Notes: generated by a model not told the origin, from the sequence alone. 64,000 nucleotides of DNA from Hadesarchaea archaeon (GCA_029259185.1 JAPDJF010000003.1:14875-78874), one strand, 5' to 3'. Counted from the first letter of the stretch, positions 36,219-53,639 are shown. Translations and numbers: made by a program.

Positions 36219-37232
36219 GTGGAAGCGATGGGGATACTCGAATCGATTGAACTACTTAAATCCAAGTTCGGTGGTGAGTTCGATAAGGGAAAGATTTCGG
36301 TCGTTCTCCGGCCCTTAGAAGAGAAGCCTTCTGAGGTGGGTGGAGCGGAGATCACCCGGGAGATCTCAGCAGGTGAAGCCAAGCCCACGGGAGACCTATC
36401 TCAAGTTGGGGGGAAAACCCGTCACATGTTTCCTAAGTGGGATAACTTGGTTGAGAAATGGAACTCCGTAGCCCTTGCGATAGGGTTGGGGTTTTTGAAT
36501 CTCTGGAACAAAAAACACTGGGTGTTTCCGATTCTCTTGTTCGGATGTGGTATAGCACTGTGGTATCAGAGCGTTTCATCCTCTCTCCTCTCATTCACCC
36601 TTTGTATAACGGTGCTTCTCACGACCCTTGTCTTGGCTTTCGTTGGGCTTGTGGTAATGGATCAGATCCAGCGGGATATCGCCTCCACCGGAAGGATAGT
36701 AACCCAAACGCTGGTCGGCATCGTGATGATAGTTGGGTTCCTCCTCTACTTGGACCTCTCCATAGGAGGTTTCCTCCCGGCACCCCCTCTGGTGCTGTTG
36801 ATAGGGGTGATGTGGGCTATTCCACTCGTTCCCTATGTCACGCTAGCAATACTCCTTCCCCCCTTGCTTGGGAGTATCCCTAGGTTCAAACCTAAATGGA
36901 ACGCGTTGAGGGGAAAGTATCCATTTTGGGGGATATATTGTGCAGTACTTGGGGGATTGCTCATCCTGTACGTTCCACTAAAATTCTTTCCACTTTACAT
37001 GTACTCCTCTCTAGTCTTCTGGGGGATGTTTTTGGGGAGTTCCACTTTAGCTTTGGCGGCTATCCTAGCTATGTTTCCACGAAAGGATTCCACTAAGGTG
37101 ACTGGTCTGTTCTTGGTCATCTTGGCTGCGCTTTCATGGGTAGGGACGCTAGGAGGTGTTATACTGGGATCCATCCTCTGCGTGGTGGGGGGAGCCCATG
37201 CGTATGCATGGACTCCAACTTCAAGGTCATAG
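36219..37232 (+). CDS. Membrane protein: N-terminal soluble domain of about 80 aa followed by 7-8 TM helices. Hypothetical.
   Basis: Hydropathy visible by eye. The start is 3 nt after the preceding stop. Confidence 0.45.
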   Translation: MEAMGILESIELLKSKFGGEFDKGKISVVLRPLEEKPSEVGGAEITREISAGEAKPTGDLSQVGGKTRHMFPKWDNLVEKWNSVALAIGLGFLNLWNKKHWVFPILLFGCGIALWYQSVSSSLLSFTLCITVLLTTLVLAFVGLVVMDQIQRDIASTGRIVTQTLVGIVMIVGFLLYLDLSIGGFLPAPPLVLLIGVMWAIPLVPYVTLAILLPPLLGSIPRFKPKWNALRGKYPFWGIYCAVLGGLLILYVPLKFFPLYMYSSLVFWGMFLGSSTLALAAILAMFPRKDSTKVTGLFLVILAALSWVGTLGGVILGSILCVVGGAHAYAWTPTSRS

Positions 37233-37269
37233 GAGGGCCTATGACAAAAAACGAAGGAGGGAGTAAAGA

Positions 37270-37773
37270 ATGGAAGGATTTGGAAAAATAGCAGGTGTGG
37301 GGCTGGCGTCTATCTTCGGTATAGTGGTGATGACTTCGATGGCGGGAGTGAGCCTAGGAATGCCAGTGAGTGACTTCCAATTCAGTGCCGATGGGATCCA
37401 GGGACGAGGATTAAACCTCTATGCTGGGACTATATCTGAAAATTCTGGAGAGCTGGGAAAGATTTTCATAGAGCTGGATGGTGCCGATATAGCGGAGATG
37501 TGTATATCCAAGGAGATGTCTATTGGAGGACTCACCGTGAGAGCTATTGTTAAGGGATCTAGCGCTGAAGCGATGAGTGTGCTGATGAAGTGCGAAAACT
37601 TCATGGCGACCACGATGGCGGCGGAGAACTTGGGAATGGGTCCCTCCGGGGACAAAGAGTTCGCTACTACTGCCGACGTTCTCAACGTTAAAAATGTCAG
37701 GGCTTGGGTGAGTCATATGAACGTGGGCTCCATCGACTTAAACGATCTCGTGATAAAGCTCGAAATAGTGTAG
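37270..37773 (+). CDS. Secreted/anchored protein, hypothetical (167 aa).
   Basis: N-terminal hydrophobic segment (IAGVGLASIFGIVVMTSMAGVSLG). Confidence 0.4.
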   Translation: MEGFGKIAGVGLASIFGIVVMTSMAGVSLGMPVSDFQFSADGIQGRGLNLYAGTISENSGELGKIFIELDGADIAEMCISKEMSIGGLTVRAIVKGSSAEAMSVLMKCENFMATTMAAENLGMGPSGDKEFATTADVLNVKNVRAWVSHMNVGSIDLNDLVIKLEIV

Positions 37774-37813
37774 CCGTAAGACGCCAGCCTCTTTTAATTT
37801 TTGGGGGACCTGC

Positions 37814-38338
37814 ATGCGATTTCATCAAGGTTTCAAGTTAGCCTTCCTCGTTTTCCTGAGTTTATTTGCTCTCATCATCTTTCCCGTTCCCTTGCTTGGG
37901 GGAAGCGAGCCCACTTTCCAAATCTGGGCAAACTCTTCTTCCACCGATCAAATAAATATCGTGGGGGATGTCAACGAAAACATCACTTTGGTCACCACCC
38001 TATCGATACATCTTGAAGGGGTGACGATACTAATCGATAACGTGTGCTTGTGCTTGGACGACGTGGATCTCGAAAATTTTTACATGTGTGTGGAGTATCT
38101 GGAAACCGATATCGAGATCTTCGGTGTGATCCCGCTCGCCCATCTCGTCATAAACGGGTCCCATGTTGATGAGGGGATACCACTCCTCGGGGCGATATTG
38201 GGTCTTCAAACGTGCCATACGGCCGATGCCCATCTTGGTCCACCCTTGACTTCCCTCATCCGGATGAATAACATGTATGTCGTGGCCAGAGAGCTGAGTT
38301 GTAAGCTGGAGGCCGAAAACGTGGTCATACGGGTGTGA
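37814..38338 (+). CDS. Secreted protein, hypothetical (174 aa).
   Basis: N-terminal signal-like segment (FKLAFLVFLSLFALIIFPVPLLGG). Confidence 0.4.
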   Translation: MRFHQGFKLAFLVFLSLFALIIFPVPLLGGSEPTFQIWANSSSTDQINIVGDVNENITLVTTLSIHLEGVTILIDNVCLCLDDVDLENFYMCVEYLETDIEIFGVIPLAHLVINGSHVDEGIPLLGAILGLQTCHTADAHLGPPLTSLIRMNNMYVVARELSCKLEAENVVIRV

Positions 38339-38412: not shown

Positions 38413-38787
38413 GTGTACAGGTGGAGACACTTCAGACACGGGCCCGGGAGGCCCATGAAACCCAGATTCATAGGGTTAAAACCATGTCTCTTCACGTTTA
38501 TTCCTTCCTCATGTGAAGAATTTCCCCCTGGAACTCCGGATCCAATTTATATGGCATACGATGAGTATGAGGCATTTCGGCTAGTGTACCATGAGGGGTT
38601 GAATCAAGAGGAGGCTGCCAAGCGGATGAGAATTTCGCGGGGGACGCTGTGGCGCTGTCTTGAGAGTGCGAGGAACAAAATAGCGCGTATGCTAGTGGAA
38701 CACCGCCCCCTTGTGGTCACCCCCGCACCCCATCCGACTCCGGGAGCCACCTCGACTGGGAGTTCCCCTCCGCTCATCCATCGTTAG
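38413..38787 (+). CDS. Sigma-70 region-4-like HTH protein (archaeal DUF134/UPF0251-type).
   Basis: LNQEEAAKRMRISRGTLWRCLESARNKIA resembles a sigma-70 r4/LuxR-type HTH. Confidence 0.45.
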   Translation: MYRWRHFRHGPGRPMKPRFIGLKPCLFTFIPSSCEEFPPGTPDPIYMAYDEYEAFRLVYHEGLNQEEAAKRMRISRGTLWRCLESARNKIARMLVEHRPLVVTPAPHPTPGATSTGSSPPLIHR

Positions 38788-39845
38788 AAATACTTGTCTA
38801 TATTCTCTAACGCTTTTGTGACCAAGGAGCTTGCTGAAGTCATGTCATGCATGTCCAGCATCTCTACTGAGGAGTGGATGTATCTGGTGGGAATACCTAC
38901 TACTCCTGTGGGAATGCCGGCCCGTGTTAGGGATATGGCGGTCGCATCAGTAGTTCCACCCTTAGCCACGTCCAACTGGTATGGGATTTTGTGCGCTTCC
39001 GCTGTTTCGGTCAGCCACTTCAGTACGTTTCTGGAGACGATGATCCCCCTTCCACTCGCATCCACCACCGTTATGGATGGTCCCTTCCCTAGCTCCAGAG
39101 ACGAGTCTTTCTTCTCTATTCCTAAGTGATCACCAGGTATTGAGACATCCAAGGCTATAGCCACGGATGGCTGAAGCCCAAAAGCGGAGGTTTTAGCTCC
39201 TTTCAGTCCAACCTCCTCCTGCACAGTCCCTACCGCATACACGGTGGCACTCGTTTTTGTCTTCTTCACAGCGTCTATCATTATAGCTAGTCCCGCCCTA
39301 TTGTCGAACCCTTTTCCCGTCACCCTATTGTTTATGAGGAATCTGACCGTTCTATCCAAAGTCGCCACGCTACCGATCGTTACCCCAGCTTTTTTTACCT
39401 CTTCCTCGCTTCGAGCTCCCACATCTATGAACATGTCGTCTGCTTTGATGGGTTTCTTCTTCTCCTCTTCCTCTAACAAGTGGGGCGGCTTTGACCCTAT
39501 CACTCCGTACACCTCTCCTCTCTCGGTTTTGAACACAACTCTTTCGTTCAGGAGAGTTTGTTCGAACCATCCCCCTATGGGAACGAAACGTATGAACCCC
39601 CGTTCGTCTATGTATTTGACCATCAACCCGATTTCATCCATGTGAGCCGCAAGCATGCAAGAGGTAGACGAACCATTTTTGATTGCTATCAAGTTTCCCA
39701 TCGTGTCGATCTTTATCTCATCCACATGACCTTCCAACTCCTCCTTGAGGATCTCTCTTATCTCATCCTCACGACCCGAAACACCGTGGGCATTGGACAG
39801 CTTCTCCAGAAGTTCTTTCATCTCGGACACCCAAACCTCTCTCAC
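38784..39845 (-). CDS. M42-family aminopeptidase (TET/FrvX-like).
   Basis: 353 aa with M42 blocks (AHMDEIGLMV, GKGFDNRAG, DVAKGGTTDA). Confidence 0.75.
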   Translation of the reverse strand: MREVWVSEMKELLEKLSNAHGVSGREDEIREILKEELEGHVDEIKIDTMGNLIAIKNGSSTSCMLAAHMDEIGLMVKYIDERGFIRFVPIGGWFEQTLLNERVVFKTERGEVYGVIGSKPPHLLEEEEKKKPIKADDMFIDVGARSEEEVKKAGVTIGSVATLDRTVRFLINNRVTGKGFDNRAGLAIMIDAVKKTKTSATVYAVGTVQEEVGLKGAKTSAFGLQPSVAIALDVSIPGDHLGIEKKDSSLELGKGPSITVVDASGRGIIVSRNVLKWLTETAEAHKIPYQLDVAKGGTTDATAISLTRAGIPTGVVGIPTRYIHSSVEMLDMHDMTSASSLVTKALENIDKYF

Positions 39846-40045
39846 TTTAATTCAAAAAACTTTTCCCATGTCGAAACGAGGACTCGGCAGAAAATTTCAT
39901 CCCGTGAGCACAGTTGCAGGAGGTTCGGTCCCTCGTGTGTGCCACCCCGGCCGTTTTATCGGTACCTCAGTACTGGTCGGTGAACTACCCCGCCCTAAAG
40001 GACGGGGCTTCTGCGCTCGCTGGCCAACGGGTAACTTCAGGGTCT

Positions 40046-40210
40046 TCATCGCTTGGGCCATTTGACTTCACCTTTTCGATCCTTTTCCACAAGCTTGAGC
40101 ATGTACTCGCTCGTGTCCTTAAACTTCAGAACCTTCGCCCGGTACTGTGCCCAAGCCCACAGCTCCTCGTCACTCTCGTCATGGAGCACCAAGGATGTGT
40201 GTTTTGCCAT
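40046..40210 (-). CDS. Small ribbon-helix-helix-like protein (54 aa). Below the ORF-track length cutoff.
   Basis: Manual translation gives MAKHTSLVLHDESDEELWAWAQYRAKVLKFKDTSEYMLKLVEKDRKGEVKWPKR. The beta-strand/helix/helix pattern is typical of CopG/Arc-type RHH proteins. Confidence 0.35.
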   Translation of the reverse strand: MAKHTSLVLHDESDEELWAWAQYRAKVLKFKDTSEYMLKLVEKDRKGEVKWPKR

Positions 40211-40430
40211 ACTTGCCAAACGTATATACGTGGCTAGGTTTTATATCTTTTTGGGGTAATCGGCCCCATCCCCTCCCTTGCGGAGGGGTCTTCTCGCGGA
40301 GGCAGATAAATTCTCGTCTTTGATCTTCGAGCTGACTTTCGTCATCCGTTATCTTGGACTCGGTGAGAGACTTGGTTTTTTTTCAAAAAATGTCTAGCGG
40401 TAGAATTAAACGGTAATTTGTCCGAGTCAG

Positions 40431-41129
40431 GTGATGGGGGCGGATTTCGATCGAATAGCATCTAGTTACGACAAGTGGTATGACACCCCTCTTGGCAAAT
40501 ATGCTCATGAGCTGGAGAAGGAATTGATCCTCCAGTTCGCCGCTCCGAAGAAAGGTGAAAGGATACTTGATGTGGGGTGTGGAACCGGGATATATGCCAT
40601 AGAACTAGCGAAAATGGGATTAGATGTAACGTGTTATGACCGTTCCAGAAACATGCTTCGAGTTTCTTGGAACAAAGCACAGGAGAGGAGAATCCATATG
40701 AATTTCGTGTTGGGGACAGCCGAAAAGCTTCCTTTTAGAGACAGGAGCTTTGATCTCATCATCTCGATAACAACTTTAGAGTTCATAGAACACCCAGCAC
40801 TCGTAGTAAATGAGATGAAACGGGTTCTCCGGAGGAGCGGGAGAATAGTCCTTGGAGTCCTTAACAGCTGGAGTTCTTGGGCTATCGAGAGGAAACTCAA
40901 ATCCTTGGTGCGAGAGTCCGTCTTCAAGTATGCCAGATTCTATAACCCTTTGGAGCTGACAACGATGTTACGACCTATGAAGGTAGAGTGGGATTCGACT
41001 CTCCTCCTCCCACCCGAGACTCCAGAGTTCGTTTTGAATGGGGGTAAAAAGATAGAAAAGTTCTTGGTGAAGATACTCAAACCCTTTGGGGCGTTCATAT
41101 GTTTAAAAGCGACATGGAGGGGGAGATGA
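40431..41129 (+). CDS. Class I SAM-dependent methyltransferase.
   Basis: Motif I ILDVGCGTGIYA, an acidic residue after beta2 (CYDRS) and motif post I. Confidence 0.75.
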   Translation: MMGADFDRIASSYDKWYDTPLGKYAHELEKELILQFAAPKKGERILDVGCGTGIYAIELAKMGLDVTCYDRSRNMLRVSWNKAQERRIHMNFVLGTAEKLPFRDRSFDLIISITTLEFIEHPALVVNEMKRVLRRSGRIVLGVLNSWSSWAIERKLKSLVRESVFKYARFYNPLELTTMLRPMKVEWDSTLLLPPETPEFVLNGGKKIEKFLVKILKPFGAFICLKATWRGR

Positions 41130-41917
41130 TGGAGATAATCTATGGTCCGGTTTCCTCTTGGAGACTTGGTAGGTCACTTGGGATTGACCTGATATGCAAA
41201 GAGGAAGGGAAAGTATGCAGCTTCGATTGTATATATTGCTCGCTCGGAAGAACCACCGAGAAAACCCTTGAGAGAAAGCTCTACGTTCCCACCGATCTAA
41301 TGGAGGAGGATTTACGAAAAACGTTGAAGGAAGTTGATGCTGATATCATCACTTTTTCGGGAACGGGTGAGCCGACCCTAGCTCTCAATTTGGGGGAAGC
41401 CATAATGGCCGTGCGGAAGATAACCGATCTCCCGGTTGCGGTGTTAACCAATTCTACGCTGATGGTTAGAGAGGATGTGAGGAGGGAGTTGGCCAAAGCG
41501 GACGTGATTAAGGGAAAGCTAGATGCTCCGAATGGAGAAGTGCTCGAAGCGGTGAACCGCCCCCACCAAGGTGTTGGGTTCGAGGAGCTCGTGAAGGGGA
41601 TGAAGCTTTTTCGGAAAGGTTACAGAGGAAAGTTCTCTATCGAAGTGATGTTCGTGCCTCAGAACGTAAGGTATGCTGGGAGGATAGCGGAAGTGATTAA
41701 GGAAATCGGACCAGACGAAGTGCAGATCAATACACCTACCCGACCGAGCCCCGTTGGTCCCCTCACACCAAAACAGATCGAGGAAATCGAAGAGAACTTC
41801 AAGACAATGAATTTCATATCGGTTTATAGGGCTGAGAGGGTGAGAATCGAGAAGATCGTTGGGGGGAAAAAAGTGGGGAGGTTAAAGCGTCGAGAGGGTG
41901 GAGGCTCCCGAAGTTAA
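41099..41917 (+). CDS. Radical SAM protein (archaeal COG0731-like).
   Basis: CxxxCxxC (CSFDCIYCSLG) preceded by GPVSSWRLGRSLGIDL. The start probably lies within 41099-41130. Confidence 0.65.
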   Translation: MFKSDMEGEMMEIIYGPVSSWRLGRSLGIDLICKEEGKVCSFDCIYCSLGRTTEKTLERKLYVPTDLMEEDLRKTLKEVDADIITFSGTGEPTLALNLGEAIMAVRKITDLPVAVLTNSTLMVREDVRRELAKADVIKGKLDAPNGEVLEAVNRPHQGVGFEELVKGMKLFRKGYRGKFSIEVMFVPQNVRYAGRIAEVIKEIGPDEVQINTPTRPSPVGPLTPKQIEEIEENFKTMNFISVYRAERVRIEKIVGGKKVGRLKRREGGGSRS

Positions 41918-41950
41918 ATTTTTCAATGGAATCTCCAGAGTTATACAGAA

Positions 41951-42703
41951 ATGAAAATCGTTTACGGTGAGAAATATCGTACCGTCTACTCTTCTGATCC
42001 AGCGGCTGCGCCTGGCAGGATGGAATCAATCTTGGACGAACTCGGCGGGGCCTTTGATTTCGTGGAACCAGAACCCGCAAGCGAGGAAGACATTTGCTTG
42101 GTCCATACCCGTTCCCACTTGGATCGGATCAAGAAGAAACCCGTGATTTACGAGGTAGCGCTGTTATCGGCGGGAGGTGCGATAAAGGCATCCGAGATAG
42201 CTATGGAAGAGGGCCCCGCGTTTGGACTTATAAGACCTCCAGGACATCACGCGAACCCTGATAACTGTTGGGGATTTTGTTATTTCAACAACATCGCTGT
42301 TTCGGTTGAGAAGCTGAGAAAAAGTGGAAAAATAAAGAGCGCGGTGATCGTGGATTTTGATCTCCACTATGGTGATGGTACCGCGAATATTTTCGCACAC
42401 GTGGATGAGGTCGTCTACCACCACCTAGGGGGGAGAGACAGAATCGCCATCTTGGAAGATCTGGAGTCATTCCTTTCCAGCCTCCGTACGTGCGATGTTA
42501 TATGCGTTTCTGCAGGATTCGACAACCATGAGGAGGACTGGGGTGGCGCGCTGAAGACCCAAGATTACAACGAAATCGGAAAGATCATTAAAGAGCGAGC
42601 CGATGCCTTGTGTGGTGGAAAGAGATACGGAGTTCTAGAGGGGGGGTATAATCATGTGGTGCTCGGTAAGAATGTTCGGGCATTTCTTGCTGGATTTGGA
42701 TGA
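41951..42703 (+). CDS. Histone deacetylase-family (HDAC/AcuC-like) amidohydrolase.
   Basis: RPPGHHA and DFDLHYGDGT zinc-site motifs. Confidence 0.7.
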   Translation: MKIVYGEKYRTVYSSDPAAAPGRMESILDELGGAFDFVEPEPASEEDICLVHTRSHLDRIKKKPVIYEVALLSAGGAIKASEIAMEEGPAFGLIRPPGHHANPDNCWGFCYFNNIAVSVEKLRKSGKIKSAVIVDFDLHYGDGTANIFAHVDEVVYHHLGGRDRIAILEDLESFLSSLRTCDVICVSAGFDNHEEDWGGALKTQDYNEIGKIIKERADALCGGKRYGVLEGGYNHVVLGKNVRAFLAGFG

Positions 42704-43834
42704 ATGTGGGGGGAAGGGATGCTTGAGTTGGAAATGCTTAAAAAAATCTCGTATGAAATCGGGCCTATAAGACCACCCTCGGAAGGGAGGCACTCGTTAC
42801 TCTTGAGGCTCACGAGGAACTGTCCTTGGGGTCTCTGTAAGTTCTGCTACGGTAAGCCCTACAACCGAGAGAGGTTCAAGATCCGAGGGATACAGGAGAT
42901 CGAGAGGGAGATCGAGAATGTGAAAACCTTGAAGGATGGGATAGAGACCATCTCCAAGAAGCTAGGTGGTATGGAGTGGACAGCGTTGGCTCTAAGCAGT
43001 TACTCCCTTTATGGGAAAGAAGTTTCTGAGCTGAATCTAGGCGAGTTCTTGAATTTTCAGTGCATAATGAATGTATTTAGTTGGATCAGGGATGGCGCTA
43101 GGACCGTGTTCCTCCAAGATGCGGATAACTTGATGATGCGAACAGACGACTTGGTAGAGATTTTGAGGTTTTTCAAGAGAACTCTTGGAGCTCCGGAGCG
43201 AGTGACTTCGTACGCTAGGGGTAGAACTGTTTTCAAGAAACCTATGAGTGAATTGAAAGAGATCAAAAAGGCTGGGCTCTCAAGACTTCACGTGGGGTTA
43301 GAAAGTGGGGATGAGCTAGTCCTGAAGTATATGAACAAAGGGATGACGCCCCAAGAACTCATCGTGGGTGGGAAGAAAGCTATAGAGGCTGGGTTCGAGC
43401 TCTCCCTTTACGTCATTTTGGGACTGGGTGGGAAATCGATGTGGAGGCGACACGCGGAAAACACGGCGAAAGTGTTGAACGAGATAAACCCTGATTTCGT
43501 AAGGGTTCGCCGACTGGTTCCACTGAAAGACACTCCTCTTTTCGAAGAATGGAAGAGGGGAGAATTCATCCTGCTGTCACCTCACGAGGAGCTGAAAGAA
43601 ATAGCAACTCTTATCAAAGGGTTGGAATTTGAGGGAAAGGTATGCTTTGATCACTTTGCTAACCCATTTTATCACACGGGAGCGGGTTTTAGGTGGGTCT
43701 TCAAACAAGACAGTGAGGGGTACCAATTTCCTCAAGAAAAAGAAGAAGTTCTAAGGAGGATAGAGAAAGCGCTGGAGATAGATGAATCTAACTTCATCGC
43801 GGCGGGGGATCTTTCCACGCTGGAAACTTTGTGA
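42704..43834 (+). CDS. Radical SAM protein (376 aa), unknown specificity.
   Basis: CPWGLCKFCYG (CxxxCxxC). Its start is adjacent to the stop of the HDAC-like gene. Confidence 0.6.
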   Translation: MWGEGMLELEMLKKISYEIGPIRPPSEGRHSLLLRLTRNCPWGLCKFCYGKPYNRERFKIRGIQEIEREIENVKTLKDGIETISKKLGGMEWTALALSSYSLYGKEVSELNLGEFLNFQCIMNVFSWIRDGARTVFLQDADNLMMRTDDLVEILRFFKRTLGAPERVTSYARGRTVFKKPMSELKEIKKAGLSRLHVGLESGDELVLKYMNKGMTPQELIVGGKKAIEAGFELSLYVILGLGGKSMWRRHAENTAKVLNEINPDFVRVRRLVPLKDTPLFEEWKRGEFILLSPHEELKEIATLIKGLEFEGKVCFDHFANPFYHTGAGFRWVFKQDSEGYQFPQEKEEVLRRIEKALEIDESNFIAAGDLSTLETL

Positions 43835-43840
43835 TTTGGA

Positions 43841-44020
43841 TCATTCCGGAAAACTTATGGCACCCGCAGTACATACTGCTTCACATGCTCTGCAGTCTAC
43901 ACACTCGTCGGGCTTAACGACCTCACATTTTTCATCCTTGACTTCTAGCACTTCGACAGGACAGGCGTTTACACACTCCCCGCAACCGGTGCACTTCTCT
44001 CTATCTATTACGGGTGGCAT
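43841..44020 (-). CDS. 2x[4Fe-4S] ferredoxin (59 aa). Below the ORF-track cutoff.
   Basis: Manual translation gives MPPVIDREKCTGCGECVNACPVEVLEVKDEKCEVVKPDECVDCRACEAVCTAGAI, which has two CxxCxxCxxxCP motifs. Confidence 0.55.
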   Translation of the reverse strand: MPPVIDREKCTGCGECVNACPVEVLEVKDEKCEVVKPDECVDCRACEAVCTAGAISFPE

Positions 44021-44154: not shown

Positions 44155-44799
44155 CTACAAAAAGTACTCCTTTATGAATTCAAAATTTCTTTTAGTCTTT
44201 TCCGCCCCTTTGACCACGCCACCGTGGCCTGGGAGCAGGTAGTGAATATCCAACTCGGAAACCCTTCTTATGGAGTCCTTCAATTTCTCCAGATCACCGC
44301 CTGGAAAGTCTGTGCGACCCACACCACCCTCGAACAGGAGATCCCCGCACATCAGTAACTTCAGTTCCTCACAGTAAAAGCTCACACTCCCGGGTGTGTG
44401 ACCGGGAGTGTGAATCACCACGAATTTCATTTTTCCCCCCAGTTTGTCCTCCAAAAAAATATCAACATCGAACTTCGGCATCTCCATTCCGAAGTACCCA
44501 GCGAACTCCATACTGAATGAGAGGTGTTCTAATTCCTCACGGTGCATCGCTATCTTAGCCCCTGAGAGGGTCTGAAGTGCACGGTTGGCCCCGCAGTGAT
44601 CGGGGTGGCTGTGGGTGTTCGCTATTAGGTCTATTTCTCTGATATCGAAACCATCGTTTTCCATCTCCGATAAGCGCTGACTCAAATATCTTGGATTTCC
44701 GGGATCGATGAGCACGCAAGGATTGTTGTCTATCAAGTAGGTGTTGCAGTCACCGATAGCTTTCTCGGGATACCAATAGACATTTTTGACCAGTTTCAT
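44155..44799 (-). CDS. MBL-fold metallo-hydrolase (glyoxalase II-like).
   Basis: THSHPDHCG (HxHxDH) motif. The probable start is MKLVKNV at 44799. Confidence 0.7.
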   Translation of the reverse strand: MKLVKNVYWYPEKAIGDCNTYLIDNNPCVLIDPGNPRYLSQRLSEMENDGFDIREIDLIANTHSHPDHCGANRALQTLSGAKIAMHREELEHLSFSMEFAGYFGMEMPKFDVDIFLEDKLGGKMKFVVIHTPGHTPGSVSFYCEELKLLMCGDLLFEGGVGRTDFPGGDLEKLKDSIRRVSELDIHYLLPGHGGVVKGAEKTKRNFEFIKEYFL

Positions 44800-45627
44800 C
44801 TCGACCACCGCGAGGAGACCCCGTCCGAAAGGGCTGGGAGATTTTTAGGTGAAAATGCGCGTGCGATCTTTGAAGACAGTCCAGCAGGGAGAAACGGCTT
44901 GGATGTGGGCCGGATACCCGAAAACCCGAATAAGCTTGTACAGAAATTCTTTCTGGCTCCGCGGATAGCTTTGCAGGAGCCATGAGTTCCTCCGCTACCT
45001 GACACTCTCTACCACCATTCTCGCTTTGTTTGAACACATACCGTAGAGCCTGCTAGAGAAGCTGGCGACGACGGAGGGGAGATCTCCGACTAACTCCTCG
45101 TGGGGAGTTCGTTCTTCTCGTTCATTTACCACTTCTATTCGAGCGCCGAGATCCTCAGCGTGATTTTTCAAATACTCAAAGCCAAAGCGGGTGAGGCGAT
45201 CTTTCCACGCAACGATCACGGTATCGGCCTCGCCAGCCCTAAGCATCTCGAACACTTTTTTCAACCCCCGTCGGTTCTCGAAAGTCGCAACCACTCGTAT
45301 CGCTTGCCCCTCGCGTATTCCTGAAGCATTCGTTTTTGACGTTTCAAATCTTCTTTCTGATCTACTGAGGAAACCCGTGCGTAGGCGATAGCCCGATTTT
45401 TTGGGACTCGTTGACCGAGCAACCGTTTGATTCCGCTCTCTGGGATACGATACCTTTTGGCCGCAGCCTGATGGCCTTGACCCTGCCCGCGTAAATCCAG
45501 CGCTTTATGGTGATGAACGAAATCTCCAAGAGCTTGGCCGCTTGCCCCGGTGGGCAGAGTTTTTCCCCTCGCATGTTCACCTGGGATATAAAAGGATATT
45601 TTAGGTAGCAGTTACATCACCTTCGAC
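44800..45627 (+). mobile_element. Chimeric/degenerate IS: an IS200/605-type left end (shared with the 1911 and 46852 copies) followed by an inverted, frameshifted IS607-type tnpA. The right boundary is approximate.
   Basis: Left-end identity (ctcgaccaccgcgaggagaccccg...gtgaaaatgc) and the block gagaaacggcttggatgtgg.ccggatacccgaaaacccgaata shared with copy A. Inserted 3' of TTCAT (44795-44799). Confidence 0.45.
44995..45580 (-). pseudogene. tnpA: IS607-family tnpA (MerR-like HTH plus serine-recombinase catalytic domain), disrupted by at least two frameshifts.
   Basis: Three minus-strand frames carry consecutive TnpA blocks: HTH (AAKLLEISFITIKRWIYAGRVKAIRL), the active-site region (AIAYARVSSVDQKEDLKRQ) and RGLKKVFEMLRAGEADTVIVAWKDRLTRFGFEYL. 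Confidence 0.6.
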
Positions 45628-46056: not shown

Positions 46057-46851
46057 CTATCCACTTGAAGCCGCTCTCTCCACCACTTCACTTAGCTCTG
46101 TCATTTTCTCTAGAATTCTCTCACCCCCCTCCGCATCGAATACAGAGACTCCCTTGAGTTCAGCTCTAGCCACACTTTCTTCGTATGGGATAGAGTATAT
46201 GGGAGGAACCCCAATTTTTTGGAGCTTCGTTGAAATGAATTCATTTTCTCTATCACGATATTTGTTTATTACCCCGAATATCTTGGTTATCCCTAGATCC
46301 TCTCCAAGCTTTTTTATCCGTCCAGCTGTTTCGATGGACCTCAGGCTCGGTTCCACCACTGTCAGGAGGATCTCCACTTTTCTCGTCGTTCCCCTTCCAA
46401 GATGTTCCACTCCAGCTTCCATGTCTAGGAGTAAAACATCAGCGACGCCTGAGAGGTGATCCACGAGTCTCCTCGCCAAGGCATTAGCTGGACAGAAACA
46501 ACCCTGTCCCCCCCTTCTGATTCTTCCAACGATAAGGAGTTTAACGCCATCCTTGCATTGGACTCCGAACTTATCTAATAAATCATCGACTTTCGGATTT
46601 AATTTGAAGATCAGTCCATATCCTTCAGGTGGTGCTCCGGTTCTCTCTTCGATGAGGGAGTCTCTCTCCATCAAAGGGATCAGTTTTCTTTCCGGAACTT
46701 CCCCACCAACTCCTAAGGCCGTGATGAGATTCGGGGAAGGATCGACATCCAGTGCAATGACTTTTTTCCCCCTTCTAGCGTAGGCTCTGGATAGTCCTGC
46801 GGCGATCGTTGTCTTTCCAACACCACCTTTTCCCGTTATGGCGATCTTCAT
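46057..46851 (-). CDS. cooC: CooC/AcsF-type Ni-insertion ATPase (MinD/ParA fold) for CO dehydrogenase/ACDS maturation.
   Basis: Walker A GKGGVGKTT plus the CooC-specific CxC motif (GQGCFCPANA). The probable start is MKIAITG at 46851. Confidence 0.7.
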   Translation of the reverse strand: MKIAITGKGGVGKTTIAAGLSRAYARRGKKVIALDVDPSPNLITALGVGGEVPERKLIPLMERDSLIEERTGAPPEGYGLIFKLNPKVDDLLDKFGVQCKDGVKLLIVGRIRRGGQGCFCPANALARRLVDHLSGVADVLLLDMEAGVEHLGRGTTRKVEILLTVVEPSLRSIETAGRIKKLGEDLGITKIFGVINKYRDRENEFISTKLQKIGVPPIYSIPYEESVARAELKGVSVFDAEGGERILEKMTELSEVVERAASSG

Positions 46852-47777
46852 CTCGACCACCGCGAGGAGACCCCGACCTTTTGAGGCGGGGAGGAACTGC
46901 GGGGGGGTTTTAAGTGAAAATGCATATACGCTGTTCTGATGAGGCTCGCCAAGACCGTCGCGTGCAGGCTTGAGCTCAGCGACGAGGAACGGCATAAGCT
47001 CCTCGCACGCTCCAGGCTTTTCGGGATGCCTGCAACCACATCTCCAAGATCGCCTTCGAGCGCAGGGTGTTCAACCCCGTCGCCCTGCACCACATGGTTT
47101 ACAGAGATACCAGGGCCAAATTCGGCCTGCCTGCGAACCTCGCAATCCGCGCCAGGGATCGGGTGGCCAAAGCATACAAGCAAAGGCGGAACAGGCTCCT
47201 CCGGTTCGACAAGCTCTCGCTCGACCTCGACGCTAGGCTCTTCCGTGTGTTCGAGAAGCCCGACGGGTGGCACGCCTCCATCGCAACGGTTCAGAAGCGG
47301 ATCAAGCCCCCGCTCAAAATAGGCGAATACCAGCGGAAACTGCTCGAGGGTGTCAAGCCGACCCACGCCGTGCTCACCTACAAGAACAAGCGGTTCTTCC
47401 TGCACGTCACCGTCGAGCGAGAAGTCCCGGAGCCAAAAGGAGATAACCCAGCCGCTGTTGATGCGGGAATGAACAATTTGCTCGTCGCTTCCAACGGCTT
47501 CAAGGTCAGGGGCAAAGGTATCCTCAAACGAAGACAGCACTTTCGAGCCTTGCGCTCCTCCCTCCAAGCCAAAGGCAAGCCGTCTGCCAAGCGCGGGCTG
47601 AAACGGCTCGGCTCGAAGGAGGGGAGATGGGTTGCTCGCGTGAACTTGGAGCGGAGAGCCGGCTCTCCCTCCATGGGCCGCCCCGTCAACCGGCCCTATG
47701 CGGGTTTGAGTGTCTTCGGACATGATGATCACCCTGCAAGCCCATCCTTTAGGGAAGGGTAGTTGACCTTCTTAACC
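46852..47777 (+). mobile_element. Degenerate IS200/605-family (TnpB-only type) element. It consists of a left end, a tnpB pseudogene with an internal deletion, and a right end.
   Basis: The left end is shared with 44800 and the right end with 2040-2132. Inserted 3' of TTCAT (46847-46851), which overlaps the cooC start. Confidence 0.6.
46939..47762 (+). pseudogene. tnpB: tnpB (IS605 OrfB family) remnant. N-terminal part only, with one frameshift near 47010 and a deletion of the RuvC/zinc-finger C-terminal region.
   Basis: MRLAKTVACRLELSDEERHKLLAR, then after a frame change TLQAFRDACNHISKIAFERRVFNPVALHHMVYRDTRAKFGLPANLAIRARDRVAKAYK...AAVDAGMNNLLVASNG...KRLGSKEGRWVARVN. The remnant then runs directly into the right end. 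Confidence 0.6.
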
Positions 47778-48074: not shown

Positions 48075-48485
48075 ATGGGAGAGAAAATAGCGAGAATAAG
48101 CATCACTTTGCCCCAAGAGCTCCTTAAGGAACTCGATAAATCATTGAGGGCTCAACGATATGCAAGCCGGTCTGAGGCGATAAGAGATGCGGTCAGAGAC
48201 TTCTTGGCGGCATACAAGTGGCGAACGGAGTTAAGGGGAGAACAGTTGGGAGTTATCGTCCTCCTTTATGATCACCATACCCGCGGGCTTACGGATGTGA
48301 TCACCGAGATCCAGCACGAAAAAAGTGAGGTGATAAGAGCCTCCCAGCATATGCACATCGATCAGGAAAACTGTATGGAAACCTTGATGGTAAAGGGACC
48401 ATCGGAAGAGATAAAACGACTGGTAGATAGGCTAGGGGCACTACGTGGAGTCAAGCAAGCTAAGCTCATAGTGGTATCGTCTTAG
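48075..48485 (+). CDS. nikR: Nickel-responsive regulator NikR (RHH plus C-terminal metal-binding domain).
   Basis: N-terminal RHH (KIARISITLPQELLKELD...RSEAIRDAVRDFL) and a C-terminal domain with His/Cys ligands (HH...H...C). Confidence 0.7.
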   Translation: MGEKIARISITLPQELLKELDKSLRAQRYASRSEAIRDAVRDFLAAYKWRTELRGEQLGVIVLLYDHHTRGLTDVITEIQHEKSEVIRASQHMHIDQENCMETLMVKGPSEEIKRLVDRLGALRGVKQAKLIVVSS

Positions 48486-48675: not shown

Positions 48676-48859
48676 TTTTCGATCCGGAGTCCTTTAGCCT
48701 TTTTTTGGAAATCTTTCTAACCTCTTCCCACTCTTTCATTGATTCTAATTTTTTCTTCTTTCGAAAAGCCTCCATTATTTTGTTTTCTTCCATGGCTACT
48801 TCAATATCCCCACTTTCACATCCCAACTACATCACCATCCTCCTTTTTCCTAGACTCTT

Positions 48860-48900
48860 AACCGTAATATATTTATGTGCATTTGCACATAAAGGGGAAG
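48860..48900 (+). promoter_or_regulatory. TATA-like box (aatatattta) followed by a perfect palindrome TATGTGCA-TT-TGCACATA. Candidate promoter/operator.
   Basis: Seen in the sequence (taaccgtaatatatttatgtgcatttgcacataaagggg), 10-50 nt upstream of the 48909 ORF and about 400 nt downstream of nikR. Confidence 0.4.
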
Positions 48901-48908
48901 GTGAAAAA

Positions 48909-49103
48909 ATGTGGTGGTCTGGTTTCGGAAGAGGTCGGGGCTGGTATGGGCCTTGGCCGGGAAGGGGACCGTTCAGCTACCTCCCACCTTGGCAGAGGCC
49001 GGGGTGGATTTTCGGTAGAGGAGCCTGCTGGTGGCTTCTCGGGCCGTGGGCTGGGTGGTACTACTACACACCCTATTACGGATTGCCTCTCTACCCCCTC
49101 TGA
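48909..49103 (+). CDS. Candidate 64-aa W/G/Y/P-rich small protein (MWWSGFGRGRGWYGPWPGRGPFSYLPPWQRPGWIFGRGACWWLLGPWAGWYYYTPYYGLPLYPL).
   Basis: ATG preceded by GGTGA 5 nt upstream. It sits behind the TATA box plus palindrome. Composition is extremely biased. Overlapping ORFs in the other frames make the coding status uncertain. Confidence 0.3.
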   Translation: MWWSGFGRGRGWYGPWPGRGPFSYLPPWQRPGWIFGRGACWWLLGPWAGWYYYTPYYGLPLYPL

Positions 49104-49824: not shown

Positions 49825-50502
49825 ATGTTCAAAATACCCATTCTAATGTCGGAGCTGAAGCTTGTCCTTGAGGCTCTGCTCGATTTCAAAGGGGAAAAAA
49901 TAAGAGACTTTTGTGAGCGGAAACTTGGGGAAGGAACGAGCGCATACGAGATACTCCAAGAACTCAATCGGGGTTTGGATGAGATAGGGAAAGGATATGA
50001 AAATAAAGAGTTCAGAAGATACTTCGAATCAGACCTGATCGTTTCTGGAGCTAACATGAGGAGGGCCATAGAAATCTTAAAACCCGAACTTGAGAAGGAG
50101 GCGAGGAAAGAAACGAAGAGAAGGGGAAAAGTGCTCATCGGCACCGTGAAGGGGGACGTACACGATATCGGTAAAACAATTGCAGGTATCGTTTTACAAT
50201 CGAACGGATTCGAGATCATAGATCTCGGTACGGATGTGGATAAAGCGACATTCGTAAATAAGGTAAGAGAACTCAAGCCTGACATCGTGGGCATGTCGGC
50301 ACTCCTCTCATCCACCGTGCCTTACATGGGGGAAGTGATCAAGGCCTTGGAAGCTGAAGGGTTGAGGAACAGAGTTAAGGTGATAGTGGGTGGCAGAGCC
50401 GTGAGCAAGGAGTTCGCCGAGCGGATAGGAGCTGATGCGTATGCAGAAGATGCGATAGACGGGCTAAAAAAGTGTATTTCTCTCATGGAGGGGAAAGAGT
50501 GA
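49825..50502 (+). CDS. Corrinoid (cobalamin-binding) protein, MtaC/MtbC/MttC-like.
   Basis: N-terminal helical cap plus a B12-binding Rossmann domain with DVHDIGK (DxHxxG), SALL and GG motifs. Confidence 0.75.
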   Translation: MFKIPILMSELKLVLEALLDFKGEKIRDFCERKLGEGTSAYEILQELNRGLDEIGKGYENKEFRRYFESDLIVSGANMRRAIEILKPELEKEARKETKRRGKVLIGTVKGDVHDIGKTIAGIVLQSNGFEIIDLGTDVDKATFVNKVRELKPDIVGMSALLSSTVPYMGEVIKALEAEGLRNRVKVIVGGRAVSKEFAERIGADAYAEDAIDGLKKCISLMEGKE

Positions 50503-51407
50503 GAATTTACATCATCTATAGGGGACCTTTCGGCGAGCAGATCACGAACAATCTCGCGCTTAAGGGATTCGCTGAAATGATCTCTGGAATTTACGAGCTG
50601 AAGCCCGAAACGATAGAGGAAGAGTATCAAGAGGAGGATCTTTGGAACAAGGTGTGGGAGGAACCAGCCAAGTACGTCCCCAAGAGTTTACCTATCAAAA
50701 GGTGTGATCTCCTGCTGGTTTTGGGCATCCATTCTAAACTTGGTGACTTTATTCCCCCTATAGCGGAGAAACTGGGGGCCAAAGCCGTACTTTACCCAAT
50801 AGATGATAAGCAACACGCTCCCGAAGCTAGGAAAACGGTGGAAGAGGATCTGAGAGCGAAGGGAATACACGTGGAATTTCCAGAGCCATTTTGTGTTCTG
50901 GAGGGGAGTGAGGATCCCATGATAAACGAGTTTGCACAACACTTTGGGAGACCGAAATTCAAGATAATCTCAGAAGGGAGCACTATTCACTCCGTAGAGG
51001 TGTTGAGGGACACCCCCTGTGGCTCGGCGACTTCTGTAGCAAAAAAAATGGTGGGGTTCAGTTGTGCGAATCTGAAGGCCTTAAAAGAAAAGCTGTTTAG
51101 TGAACACCACAACGAAGAGAACGAAAATTACTGTCTAGCGGAAATGGATCCCCTCCATCCCTACATGCAGGAAGCTGGTGACATACTAGTGGATGCTTTC
51201 TTCGAGGCCTGTGGCGTTCCCACCCTCCAAGAACTTATCTTGAAAGAAATAGAATCGACCGGGAAGCTGGATCTTTCAATCCTCAAGAGTAAATTCGTCG
51301 ATGAGGAGAAACGATGTGAAACGGGTATGACTATCGAGCGAGTTGTTGATGAGCTAGTTCGGAAAGGAAAGATACCGAGGGACTTGCTTCACTCCCATAC
51401 CGAGTGA
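50472..51407 (+). CDS. Conserved archaeal hypothetical protein (DUF166-like).
   Basis: ORF of about 300 aa. The probable start is the GTG at 50499 (MRIYIIYRGPFGE). Function unknown. Confidence 0.45.
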   Translation: MYFSHGGERVRIYIIYRGPFGEQITNNLALKGFAEMISGIYELKPETIEEEYQEEDLWNKVWEEPAKYVPKSLPIKRCDLLLVLGIHSKLGDFIPPIAEKLGAKAVLYPIDDKQHAPEARKTVEEDLRAKGIHVEFPEPFCVLEGSEDPMINEFAQHFGRPKFKIISEGSTIHSVEVLRDTPCGSATSVAKKMVGFSCANLKALKEKLFSEHHNEENENYCLAEMDPLHPYMQEAGDILVDAFFEACGVPTLQELILKEIESTGKLDLSILKSKFVDEEKRCETGMTIERVVDELVRKGKIPRDLLHSHTE

Positions 51408-51424
51408 ACTCGGTTAGAAACTAG

Positions 51425-53122
51425 TCAGGGGGAGGTGCACTGGTCGAACACTAGTTCACCCATGAGTCTGTAGAGGAAGTTGCTCTCCGATTCGAGGTTC
51501 AAATGCTCGATCCGGCTTACCATTTCTTCCACTTCTTTTCGTTTCTTCCTCGAGACCAACACCTGTCGGGCCCCCTCTAGTGCCGCATTCCCCACCCGTT
51601 CGACCCTACTGAGGGAAACTTCAGGGAGTAGACCTATCCGGTAAGAGTTTTCTACGTTTATGTAGTTTCCGAATGCCCCGGCGAGGTAAATCTTTTTTAC
51701 CTCACCTAGGCTGGTCCCATATTTCTCCAGAAGCACCTTATTTCCCACACAAACCGCCGCTTTCGCGAGCTTCAGCTTGTCTATATCCTCCCCATCTATT
51801 TTTATGGGTCTCTCTCCGGCGACTACCACGAATTCCCGCCCGCCCTTTTTGAATTTTCCTGTTTTGTCTATTATCCCACGATCCAGCATCTGGGCCAGGA
51901 TATCGATCAGGCCAGATCCACATATCCCCACGGGTGGGAGGTCACCTATGGTCTCGTATCGAACCCGCATGCTTTCGTCTATTTCTACCTTGTGTATTGC
52001 CCCCTCTACTGCCCCACTCCCACATTTTATCCCGCTTCCCTCGAAGGCGGGTCCGGAGGCGCATGAGGTGGCGATCATCCTATCTTTATTTCCTATCACT
52101 ATCTCGGTGTTGGTTCCTATGTCTATCATCATGCTCACCTCTCGCCTCTTGTGCATCCCTGTAGCTAAAATGGCAGCAGAGGTGTCGGCCCCCACGAAAC
52201 CCCCGATGAGGGGAAGAGCATAGACGTTTCCCTTGGGATTCATCTTTATTCCTAGCTCTCCTCCACTTCTGTTCACGGGATCTTTGGTGAACGGCTCAAA
52301 CGGGGCCACCCCTAGAGAATCCACCGGGTGGCCTAGGAAGAGATCCCTCATCGTTGAGTTTCCTACCACGACCATCTCGTATACGTGCTGCGGATCGACT
52401 TTCAGCCCCTCGATCATCTCGTTCACCCCACTTCTCACAACGGTCTCCAGTTTGTGCTGCTTTTTCTCCCGAGCACGGGTTATCCTGGCGATGACATCGC
52501 TTCCATACACTTCTTGAGGGTTCTTCATAGCAGTAGTCCCCACGATGAGTCCTTTTTCTAAATCCACGCAGTACATCGCTAGTGTGGTTGTTCCAATATC
52601 CAGAGCTAGCCCGAGCATCTCCCCCTCATAATCCCCGATCTCCCTCACAATTCCATTCCACTCCCAGCGCACCCTCCGTGTTTCTCCTTCACCACCAACT
52701 ACACCTATCACCGGTTCGAGGGGTACTGGAACGACCTTGCCTCTCTCCAGCACCTTGTACCTCCGCTTTGGGACTTCCACGTATATGTTTGCATCTTCTT
52801 TCTCCACTCTGGCTTGGCAGGCGAGTCTGTATCCGGTTTCTTTGATGAACTTCTTTTCGATGTCTCCGGGTTCGTTCAGCCCTTCTCCTTCTACTTTTAC
52901 CACACACTGGCCACACGCTCCGATGCCTCCGCAGAGGGAGCTTATGTCTATCCCGAGTTCTTGGCAATAAGAGAGGATCGTCTTGCCCTTGGTCAGTTTC
53001 GCTTCCTTTCCGTAGTTCCGAAAAAAAATCTTCCCCAATCTCTCCCCTCTAACAAACACTTTTCTTGGATTTAATCTCACCGGCAAGAGGCTTTGTGGTG
53101 GATGAGCGGAGATTCGTTCCAA
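51425..53122 (-). CDS. Reductive activator of corrinoid Fe-S protein (RACo-like; COG3894, ASKHA ATPase with an N-terminal [2Fe-2S] ferredoxin domain).
   Basis: Plant-type 2Fe-2S motif (CGGIGACGQCVV...C) followed by an actin-like ATPase fold (DIGTTT, VDIGTNTE). Confidence 0.7.
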   Translation of the reverse strand: MERISAHPPQSLLPVRLNPRKVFVRGERLGKIFFRNYGKEAKLTKGKTILSYCQELGIDISSLCGGIGACGQCVVKVEGEGLNEPGDIEKKFIKETGYRLACQARVEKEDANIYVEVPKRRYKVLERGKVVPVPLEPVIGVVGGEGETRRVRWEWNGIVREIGDYEGEMLGLALDIGTTTLAMYCVDLEKGLIVGTTAMKNPQEVYGSDVIARITRAREKKQHKLETVVRSGVNEMIEGLKVDPQHVYEMVVVGNSTMRDLFLGHPVDSLGVAPFEPFTKDPVNRSGGELGIKMNPKGNVYALPLIGGFVGADTSAAILATGMHKRREVSMMIDIGTNTEIVIGNKDRMIATSCASGPAFEGSGIKCGSGAVEGAIHKVEIDESMRVRYETIGDLPPVGICGSGLIDILAQMLDRGIIDKTGKFKKGGREFVVVAGERPIKIDGEDIDKLKLAKAAVCVGNKVLLEKYGTSLGEVKKIYLAGAFGNYINVENSYRIGLLPEVSLSRVERVGNAALEGARQVLVSRKKRKEVEEMVSRIEHLNLESESNFLYRLMGELVFDQCTSP

Positions 53123-53219
53123 GTATTCGGATTTCAGCGATCACCATACCAAAAGTTTTTATGTGCAATAGCTAAAAAACATAAGCTTAAAGATGGATGA
53201 GTAAAAGGGGGGAAGGGCC

Positions 53220-53639
53220 GTGAATGGACATGAACCGAGGATTATAGCTTTCTTCTGCAACTTCTGCTCCTATTTAGCAGCAGATATGGCTGGAGTGAGC
53301 AGGATCCAGTATCCGCCGAACGTGCGGATTATCCGACTGATGTGTACAGGAAGATTGAGTCCTCTTTATATTCTAGAAGCGTTCGCGCGAGGTGCTGACG
53401 GGGTGTTGGTGGCGGGATGCCATCCCGGTGATTGTCACTTCATAAAAGGAAACCTGTATGCGAGGAGGAGAGTTTCCATGTTGAAGAAACTGCTTGAGAT
53501 GATGGGGATAGACCCGAGGAGACTCCGACTCGAGTGGGTTTCAGCCTCCGAAGGAAACAAACTCGCGAACGTGATCAAGGAATTCGTTGAAGAAGTTAGA
53601 TCGCTCGGAGCCAACCCGCTGAAGGAGGTTAACGCGTGA
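53220..53639 (+). CDS. mvhD: MvhD-type [2Fe-2S] protein (methyl-viologen-reducing hydrogenase delta subunit family).
   Basis: IIAFFCNFCSY...MCTGR...GADGVLVAGCHPGDCH shows the typical MvhD cysteine pattern. Confidence 0.7.
   Translation: MNGHEPRIIAFFCNFCSYLAADMAGVSRIQYPPNVRIIRLMCTGRLSPLYILEAFARGADGVLVAGCHPGDCHFIKGNLYARRRVSMLKKLLEMMGIDPRRLRLEWVSASEGNKLANVIKEFVEEVRSLGANPLKEVNA

Follow-up and report, generated by a model that had tools for sequence, protein, structure and literature searches.

Several radical S-adenosylmethionine (SAM) enzymes and histone deacetylase (HDAC)-fold hydrolases have been described that are the closest counterparts of the proteins discussed here. Tyw1/Taw1, the 4-demethylwyosine synthase of COG0731, binds an auxiliary second [4Fe-4S] cluster through extra conserved cysteines. 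Elp3 is the radical SAM/KAT enzyme for the cm5 modification of tRNA U34 (6ia8, 5l7j). Class II HDAC, HDAH, APAH and AcuC enzymes are represented by the structures of HDAC6 (5g0h), HDAH (1zz0) and APAH (3q9b). MgmA/QCMT is the B12-dependent radical SAM glutamine C-methyltransferase of methyl-coenzyme M reductase (MCR) (PDB 9ccb; PMC11796369). Counterparts of these enzymes are encoded side by side at positions 40,431 to 44,020 of a 64,000-nucleotide stretch of DNA from Hadesarchaea archaeon (GCA_029259185.1, JAPDJF010000003.1:14875-78874), the whole of which is called the window below. At this locus, genes for a methyltransferase, a first radical SAM enzyme (rSAM1), an HDAC-like protein and a second radical SAM enzyme (rSAM2) lie on one strand and face a ferredoxin gene. 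The initial annotation proposed that this set resembles a multi-step modification pathway for a modified nucleoside, cofactor or peptide. Because relatives carry the genes in at least three separate neighborhoods, the cluster is probably a mosaic peculiar to this species, put together from three or more unrelated synteny blocks, and not a dedicated pathway.

The cluster consists of five open reading frames (ORFs), whose positions and domain types, as first annotated, were confirmed by the ORF listing and Pfam:

40431-41129, plus strand: methyltransferase ORF, 232 amino acids (aa), the first of the co-oriented run
41099-41917, plus strand: rSAM1 ORF, an open frame of 272 aa; likely gene 41126..41917, 263 aa
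41951-42703, plus strand: HDAC-like ORF, 250 aa
42704-43834, plus strand: rSAM2 ORF, 376 aa, or 371 aa from the ATG at 42719
43841-44020, minus strand: ferredoxin ORF, 59 aa, in convergent orientation to rSAM2, the two stop codons being 6 nt apart

Since many orthologs at 50-68% identity exist for each protein searched, the five ORFs are real genes rather than chance frames. Their linkage was examined with tblastn and HMM searches using the window proteins. An rSAM2-anchored genome scan covered the best 80 ortholog loci in 80 metagenome-assembled genomes (MAGs) with flanks of up to 10 kb, an HDAC-anchored metagenome scan covered the best 80 ortholog loci at 54-66% identity, and six distinct rSAM1 contexts were read (L164, L166, L167, L169, L171 and L175; L numbers denote loci or contigs). 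The proposed pathway fails this test of conserved linkage. The five-gene order was seen only in L081, L082 and L163, which show 98-100% protein identity to the window. rSAM1 was found at none of the 80 rSAM2 loci, neither rSAM1 nor rSAM2 at any of the 80 HDAC loci, and neither HDAC nor rSAM2 in any of the six rSAM1 contexts. A methyltransferase gene stood beside the anchor gene only in L056, the single case among the 80 rSAM2 loci, and in L095 among the HDAC loci, where the match is weak (28% identity, 50 bits) and lies about 130 nt downstream of HDAC on the opposite strand. No small ferredoxin gene was adjacent to rSAM2 at any of the 80 loci; the nearest candidates, at distances of 640 bp to 5 kb, encode larger Fe-S proteins. 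An HDAC-family gene was adjacent to rSAM2 at four of these loci (L001, L003, L004, L059), and a metallo-beta-lactamase (MBL)-fold gene stood just upstream of it at three (L039, L040, L048).

The nearest orthologs of rSAM2, HDAC and the MBL-fold protein encoded beyond the ferredoxin are found on three contigs of one hydrocarbon-seep metagenome, at 57-68% identity. A further contig, from a hydrothermal vent, carries an HDAC that is 67% identical to that of the window and has no rSAM2. The gene orders are as follows (minus-strand genes are marked):

L176: HypA, HDAC, NUDIX, DUF498 (minus), rSAM2, MBL (minus)
L172: HDAC (truncated where the contig ends), DUF498 (minus), rSAM2, MBL (minus), and farther on NikR
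L177: DUF498 (minus), rSAM2, MBL (minus)
L173 (hydrothermal vent): M42 (minus), VIT1, membrane protein, HDAC

The order HDAC, rSAM2, MBL (minus), NikR, with other genes in between, is thus a clade-level synteny block. In the relatives the HDAC-to-rSAM2 part is not an operon, because an opposite-strand gene interrupts it. The methyltransferase, rSAM1 and ferredoxin genes are all absent from the HDAC-to-MBL block of these closest relatives. VIT1, NUDIX and DUF498, which lie between the blocks in the relatives, are absent from this position in the window. The genes flanking the cluster in the window are the following:

38413..38787, plus strand: DUF134 (UPF0251) putative DNA-binding protein (Pfam DUF134 E 4e-19)
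38784..39845, minus strand: M42 aminopeptidase (Pfam Peptidase_M42 E 3e-105), the divergent synteny partner of HDAC
44155..44808, minus strand: ODP-type (di-iron) MBL-fold protein of 217 aa (Lactamase_B E 6e-37, ODP E 1e-13)
44995..45580, minus strand: fragmented IS607-type serine-recombinase gene in three ORFs (Resolvase E 3e-11 on a 99-aa fragment)
47067-47762: truncated TnpB (OrfB_IS605, E 3e-5)
48075..48485, plus strand: NikR-type nickel-responsive regulator (Pfam NikR_C E 8e-30, RHH_1)

In L083, L086 and L088 the HDAC ortholog has M42 as its divergent upstream neighbor; M42 is found at a greater upstream distance in L084, L090 and L151, and again on the vent contig; in the window, the methyltransferase and rSAM1 genes sit between the two. 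On the three hydrocarbon-seep contigs rSAM2 is directly followed by a convergent MBL ortholog 62-66% identical to that of the window, and on none of the three does a ferredoxin gene stand between them. The window NikR is 67% identical to the NikR located about 1.3 kb beyond the MBL gene in L172. The IS607 and TnpB remnants sit between the MBL gene and NikR, breaking the synteny seen in L172, and they are consistent with a recent rearrangement beside the cluster. The upstream 53-aa and 72-aa ORFs of the recombinase region, which hold an N-terminal catalytic-serine segment and an HTH-like segment, would form one broken recombinase gene together with the 99-aa fragment. A 294-aa ORF that is antisense to the TnpB fragment and overlaps it (region 46848-47762) gave no family match.

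The locus may accordingly be described as at least three blocks brought together. One would be rSAM1 from an iron/Fe-S neighborhood, here with a translationally coupled methyltransferase gene. Another would be the M42 (minus)/HDAC (plus) pair, and a further one rSAM2 with MBL-ODP (minus) and, at a distance, NikR, which lies just downstream of HDAC in the window's clade. The methyltransferase-rSAM1 pair sits between M42 and HDAC here, the intervening genes are absent from this position, and IS607/IS605 remnants are found next door. The enzymes most likely differ in what they act on. The methyltransferase would perform a generic SAM-dependent methyl transfer, and each radical SAM enzyme would cleave SAM reductively to form a 5′-deoxyadenosyl radical for hydrogen-abstraction chemistry. 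Amide hydrolysis (deacylation) is expected of the HDAC-fold protein, which would be Zn-dependent and have a pocket more open than that of canonical HDACs. The ferredoxin may reduce the radical SAM clusters as a generic, non-conserved neighbor. As the arrangement is species-specific, it is of little use for inferring the function of the four families.

Several observations weigh against the mosaic interpretation. The four plus-strand genes share one orientation with every gap at or below 33 nt (-4, 33 and 0-15 nt, the last being 15 nt with the rSAM2 start at 42719). Judged from the junction sequence and the gene calls on L081, the likely start of rSAM1 is 41126, which overlaps the methyltransferase stop as ATGA and has GGAGGGGGAG upstream. 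The rSAM2 ORF opens at the base after the HDAC stop (42703/42704), as was first described; its start is more likely the ATG at 42719 than 42704, and this ATG is preceded by GGGGGGAAGGG and was also called as the start on the twin contig L081 (ENA ERZ25515408, 163 kb; proteins 98-100% identical to those of the window). No terminator-like site was found at any of the three gene junctions with a terminator model that is ill-suited to an archaeon, and sigma-70 promoter and terminator scans, whose models are likewise unsuited, stayed at or below shuffle expectation. With these tight gaps, an ATGA overlap and Shine-Dalgarno-like sequences, the methyltransferase, rSAM1, HDAC and rSAM2 genes probably form one transcript, and a shared transcript often signals related function. 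HDAC and rSAM2 also stay within 0.8 kb of each other in L172 and L176 at about 60-68% protein identity, and an HDAC-family gene stands beside rSAM2 in two further independent lineages. By a rough estimate, these two extra adjacencies among about 50 independent lineages, against about 0.1 expected by chance, amount to an excess of about 20-fold. A methyltransferase gene lies near rSAM1 in L164 and L165, where the two are convergent (the L164 enzyme being 37% identical to that of the window), and another lies within 1.3 kb of rSAM1 in L167, which is a weak hint of a relationship. Finally, sampling was confined to the best 80 loci per scan and about ten look-ups, which limits the reach of the comparison.

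The two further HDAC adjacencies deserve a closer description. In Bathyarchaeota BA2 (L003 9092-11116, LIHK01000055.1), an HDAC paralog of 291 aa and rSAM2 share one strand, the HDAC gene coming first and a gap of 21 bp separating the two, and L001 and L004 contain the same tight unit with paralogs of about 283-291 aa. As the rSAM2 proteins of L001, L003 and L004 are 83-88% identical to each other, the three loci are counted as one event. The BA2 paralog is 35-40% identical to the window HDAC and retains the canonical YPGTG loop, and the BA2 ortholog of the window HDAC (P0164, 62% identical) is on another contig. In a Desulfobacteraceae MAG (L059), rSAM2, a 101-aa ORF and a short HDAC that is 50% identical lie on one strand; the 101-aa ORF appears ferritin-like in our own reading of its sequence. 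On the rSAM2 protein tree, the HDAC-adjacent cases occupy three separate places, namely the window's clade, L001/L003/L004 and L059.

These adjacencies raise the alternative that HDAC and rSAM2, possibly with MBL/ODP, form a functional module to which the methyltransferase, rSAM1 and ferredoxin are bystanders. The HDAC would then either take the acyl group off an acylated amine of a protein, polyamine or cofactor precursor or bind that amine, and rSAM2 would perform radical chemistry on the same substrate. Direct adjacency in the window, the spacing of 0.1-0.8 kb in L172 and L176 at 57-68% identity, the same-strand pairs with a 21-bp gap and a different HDAC paralog in BA2 and two relatives, the single-strand run with a 101-aa gene in the Desulfobacteraceae MAG, and the distribution over three independent clades of the rSAM2 tree all argue for such a module. 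It is nevertheless missing from 76 of the 80 rSAM2 loci and from all 80 HDAC ortholog loci; DUF498 on the opposite strand splits the pair in L172 and L176; L007 lacks the upstream HDAC, yet its rSAM2 is 81% identical to that of L001; and BA2 has P0164, its ortholog of the window HDAC, on another contig. In addition, MBL-fold genes recur beside rSAM2 about as often, and recurrence of this kind is thus not very specific. On balance, we regard this explanation as rather unlikely. Its strongest form, in which an HDAC-fold hydrolase and rSAM2 constitute an undescribed two-enzyme module for deacylation-coupled radical modification that was assembled independently at least three times, is unlikely. 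If true, the target of the module would be a protein, a polyamine or a cofactor, and its hosts would be archaea and bacteria living strictly anaerobically in the subsurface. The HDAC-fold/rSAM2 pairing is a useful lead for experimenters, as is the metal-related, non-wyosine context of rSAM1.

Two other interpretations fare worse than a mosaic of unrelated blocks. That the four plus-strand genes together make up a lineage-specific multi-step pathway (modified nucleoside, cofactor or peptide), with reduction by the ferredoxin, agrees with their co-orientation and tight packing, the translationally coupled methyltransferase/rSAM1 junction, the low-potential ferredoxin alongside, and the fact that no protein belongs to a characterized family. 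Yet the arrangement is confined to the 98-100% identical contigs, the components occupy different neighborhoods in every more distant relative, no precursor-peptide, transporter or tRNA-related gene is conserved with the set, and the insertion sequence (IS) remnants next door, like the absence of the intervening genes, suggest that the genes came together recently. The pathway is largely refuted by the synteny tests, and we consider it very unlikely. Of the two properties by which the initial annotation expected the pathway to be disproved, a lack of conserved linkage was found; assignment of the genes to separate, well-known pathways was not, since in searches of Pfam, NCBIfam (with curated cut-offs) and PADLOC no cluster protein reached the NCBIfam cut-off of any named family. 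An even less probable interpretation makes the methyltransferase and rSAM1 a wyosine-type (Taw1/Tyw1 plus methyltransferase) tRNA-modification pair, the other genes being unrelated. The name "wyosine synthetase" (COG0731) given to rSAM1 homologs at JGI, the class I methyltransferase adjacent here and in L164/L165, and the presence of TrmO and TRM5/TYW2-like methyltransferases within about 1-5 kb in L164 and L167 would fit it. Against this, rSAM1 scores 19.5 bits with the TYW1 model TIGR03972 (cut-off 318), no cysteine beyond its CX3CX2C is invariant and available for an auxiliary cluster, and its conserved neighbors are iron/Fe-S genes, not tRNA genes. A literature search on DUF134/COG0731 radical SAM proteins or HDAC and radical SAM linkage in Bathyarchaeota/Hadarchaeota found nothing relevant.

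rSAM1 matches Pfam Radical_SAM (E 5e-14) and carries the three-cysteine motif for the SAM-binding [4Fe-4S] cluster of the radical SAM superfamily (PF04055), which in rSAM1 and rSAM2 alike is placed where a partial or full TIM barrel starts. Its CX3CX2C residues C31/C35/C38 (263-aa numbering) are the sole invariant cysteines in 26 orthologs. Like Tyw1/Taw1, it is a small archaeal radical SAM protein with homologs named COG0731, and the COG0731-type label in the initial annotation fits that naming. It differs from Tyw1/Taw1 in its TIGR03972 score (exact cut-off 317.95), in lacking the conserved auxiliary-cluster cysteines, in a structural match to 2z2u that is unexceptional, and in its genomic context. 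The named best matches of rSAM1 are from Hadarchaeales. Iron/Fe-S genes are present in all six of its contexts, each of which contains some of the following: DtxR-type iron repressors, FeoB, ZIP and VIT1 transporters, DUF134, an MBL-fold gene, NifX-like PF02579 proteins, CbiA/MinD-type ATPases with ferredoxin domains, and DUF5320-like proteins. The window DUF134 is orthologous to, and 56-58% identical to, those of L166 and L167, where it is encoded three genes and one gene upstream of rSAM1, respectively. DUF134 and rSAM1 are farther apart in the window, where M42, a 57-aa ORF and the methyltransferase gene lie between them. Likewise, a Gly/Arg/Pro-rich ORF (48705-49103) matches a 94-aa protein adjoining the NifX-like gene in L166. 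Because relatives place rSAM1 among iron/Fe-S genes, a role in iron or metallocluster handling is suggested, and the "wyosine synthetase" name of this family is a probable mis-annotation; a metal-related role, if true, would correct a common error. Two other assignments were rejected. As a prokaryotic viperin (pVip), rSAM1 scored 32.8 bits with NF038283 (cut-off 180) and 38 bits in PADLOC, a domain-level match, and its neighbors are iron/Fe-S genes. Membership in the NifB radical SAM domain with NifX-like (PF02579) carrier proteins fails on a defining feature.

The methyltransferase matches Pfam Methyltransf_11 (E 2e-26) and Ubie_methyltran (E 2e-18), and all its NCBIfam matches are far below cut-off. 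The class I SAM-binding fold is apparent in the sequence, and the protein is predicted to be a class I SAM-dependent methyltransferase with a UbiE/COQ5-like fold, as first annotated. PADLOC returned only weak, domain-level matches, pVip at about 38 bits for rSAM1 and the mad2 methyltransferase domain at 86 bits for the methyltransferase, and a defense system was rejected given the level of these matches and the lack of a defense context.

Similarly, the assignment of the third protein to the HDAC family was borne out. It matches Pfam Hist_deacetyl (PF00850) with E 1.5e-43 and 149.7 bits (cut-off 27.9), and its PDB matches include HDAC6 (E 4e-37), bacterial HDAH and APAH. Residues H99/H100, D135/D137/H139, D191 and Y233 are invariant in 24 orthologs, and the catalytic set is complete, comprising two tandem His, the Asp-His-Asp metal ligands of the D-x-H and GFD motifs, and the Tyr of GGY. 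It is thus predicted to be a compact HDAC-fold zinc amidohydrolase/deacylase. The fold and the complete catalytic set are shared with class II HDAC, HDAH, APAH and AcuC, whereas the window protein comprises about 250 aa instead of 300-370 aa, lacks loops, and reaches no NCBIfam family. In comparison with the BA2 paralog, the YPGTG loop and several other loops are missing, and access to the active site is probably far more open than it is in characterized HDACs. The named best matches are from Hadarchaeales. The recurrent neighbors among the 80 HDAC loci are DRG/Obg-type GTPase (17), RadA (9), ribosomal protein S7 (9), a macro domain (8) and divergent M42 (6). The 250-aa HDAC family occurs in Bathyarchaeia, Hadarchaeales, Thermoproteota, Armatimonadota and Bacillota MAGs, and a macro-domain gene directly precedes the short HDAC in eight relatives.

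rSAM2 shows a Pfam Radical_SAM match (E 3e-15) and a weak Elp3-type Radical_SAM_C match. The invariant CX4CX2C (C40/C45/C48) is the three-cysteine motif for the SAM-binding [4Fe-4S] cluster of PF04055, in agreement with its initial annotation as a second radical SAM enzyme of 376 aa. Sequence links to Elp3 structures (E 3e-7) and to MgmA indicate a core of the predicted Elp3/HemN/MgmA type. No B12-binding domain (no PF02310 match) and no acetyltransferase domain were found in Pfam; rSAM2 is therefore neither a class B methylase nor Elp3, and it would catalyze neither methylation nor carboxymethylation of these kinds. Relative to Elp3, it is without the C-terminal GNAT/KAT domain, scores 28.8 bits with TIGR01211 (cut-off 350), contains a helical insertion (residues 63-129) after the cluster loop, and has a small beta/alpha region at its C-terminus, the last residue being 376. 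On its own, it would be incapable of acetyl-CoA-dependent carboxymethylation. Relative to MgmA/QCMT, its cysteine motif is at residues 40-48 with nothing Rossmann-like before it and no B12-binding domain, it scores 23.8 bits with TIGR04014 (cut-off 360), and its family is abundant in Dehalococcoidia and Desulfobacterota. Dehalococcoidia and Desulfobacterota are not known to possess MCR.

The named best matches of rSAM2 are from Bathyarchaeia/Nezhaarchaeales, and the 80 loci span Bathyarchaeia, Nezhaarchaeota, Methanolliviera, Syntrophoarchaeum, Methanomethylicia, Hadarchaeota, Dehalococcoidia and Desulfobacterota. De novo clustering of neighbors found no partner in more than 11 of the 80 loci, and a universal rSAM2 partner was rejected on these grounds. 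The commonest neighbors (ffh, PAC2-family, nuoE/F-like and ychF) reflect lineage-specific housekeeping synteny. rSAM2 thus represents a large uncharacterized radical SAM family, for which only HDAC-fold and MBL/ODP-fold neighbors recur across lineages. In Dehalococcoidia (L025, L028, L035, L037, L042, L044, L045, L047, L050 and L066), rSAM2 is located directly downstream of ffh (SRP54), and one to three PAC2-family genes follow it at about half of the Dehalococcoidia loci, a context unlike the archaeal one.

The ferredoxin matches Pfam Fer4 (E 9e-14) and the Fer4_7/Fer4_10 dicluster models. Its motifs C10-x2-C-x2-C-x3-CP and C40-x2-C-x2-C-x3-C are those of a bacterial-type 2x[4Fe-4S] ferredoxin, and the convergent 59-aa 2x[4Fe-4S] protein of the initial annotation stands. 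It was at first found only by manual translation, but it is not a hidden gene, as a gene caller had called it on the twin contig.

An Rfam gathering scan of 36-50 kb and a tRNA scan of the whole window returned nothing. The 585-bp gap between M42 and the methyltransferase gene contains a 57-aa ORF (40046-40219, minus strand), which corresponds to a 54-aa gene on L081 (7328-7492) and has no Pfam match. The same intergenic region contains a GC-rich hairpin-like inverted repeat at 39985-40012 (CCCCGCCC-TAAAGGA-CGGGG) with no Rfam or tRNA match; it was rejected as a repeated element, as a 20-nt probe matches once in the window. Farther upstream, three uncharacterized genes stand in a row before DUF134 (36219-38338, plus strand); their products are a membrane protein with DUF6114, a protein with DUF6230 and a 174-aa protein that has no annotation. 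The downstream region (46057-46995, minus strand; 48075-48485, plus strand; and about 49850-53700) is rich in Ni/Co/corrinoid-related genes, the content of the last interval being read from the L081 annotation with an offset of +32718. These genes encode a CooC/CbiA-type ATPase, NikR, a B12-binding protein, DUF166, a RACo-type corrinoid activase, FlpD and a molybdopterin oxidoreductase. In the relative L176, HypA adjoins HDAC.

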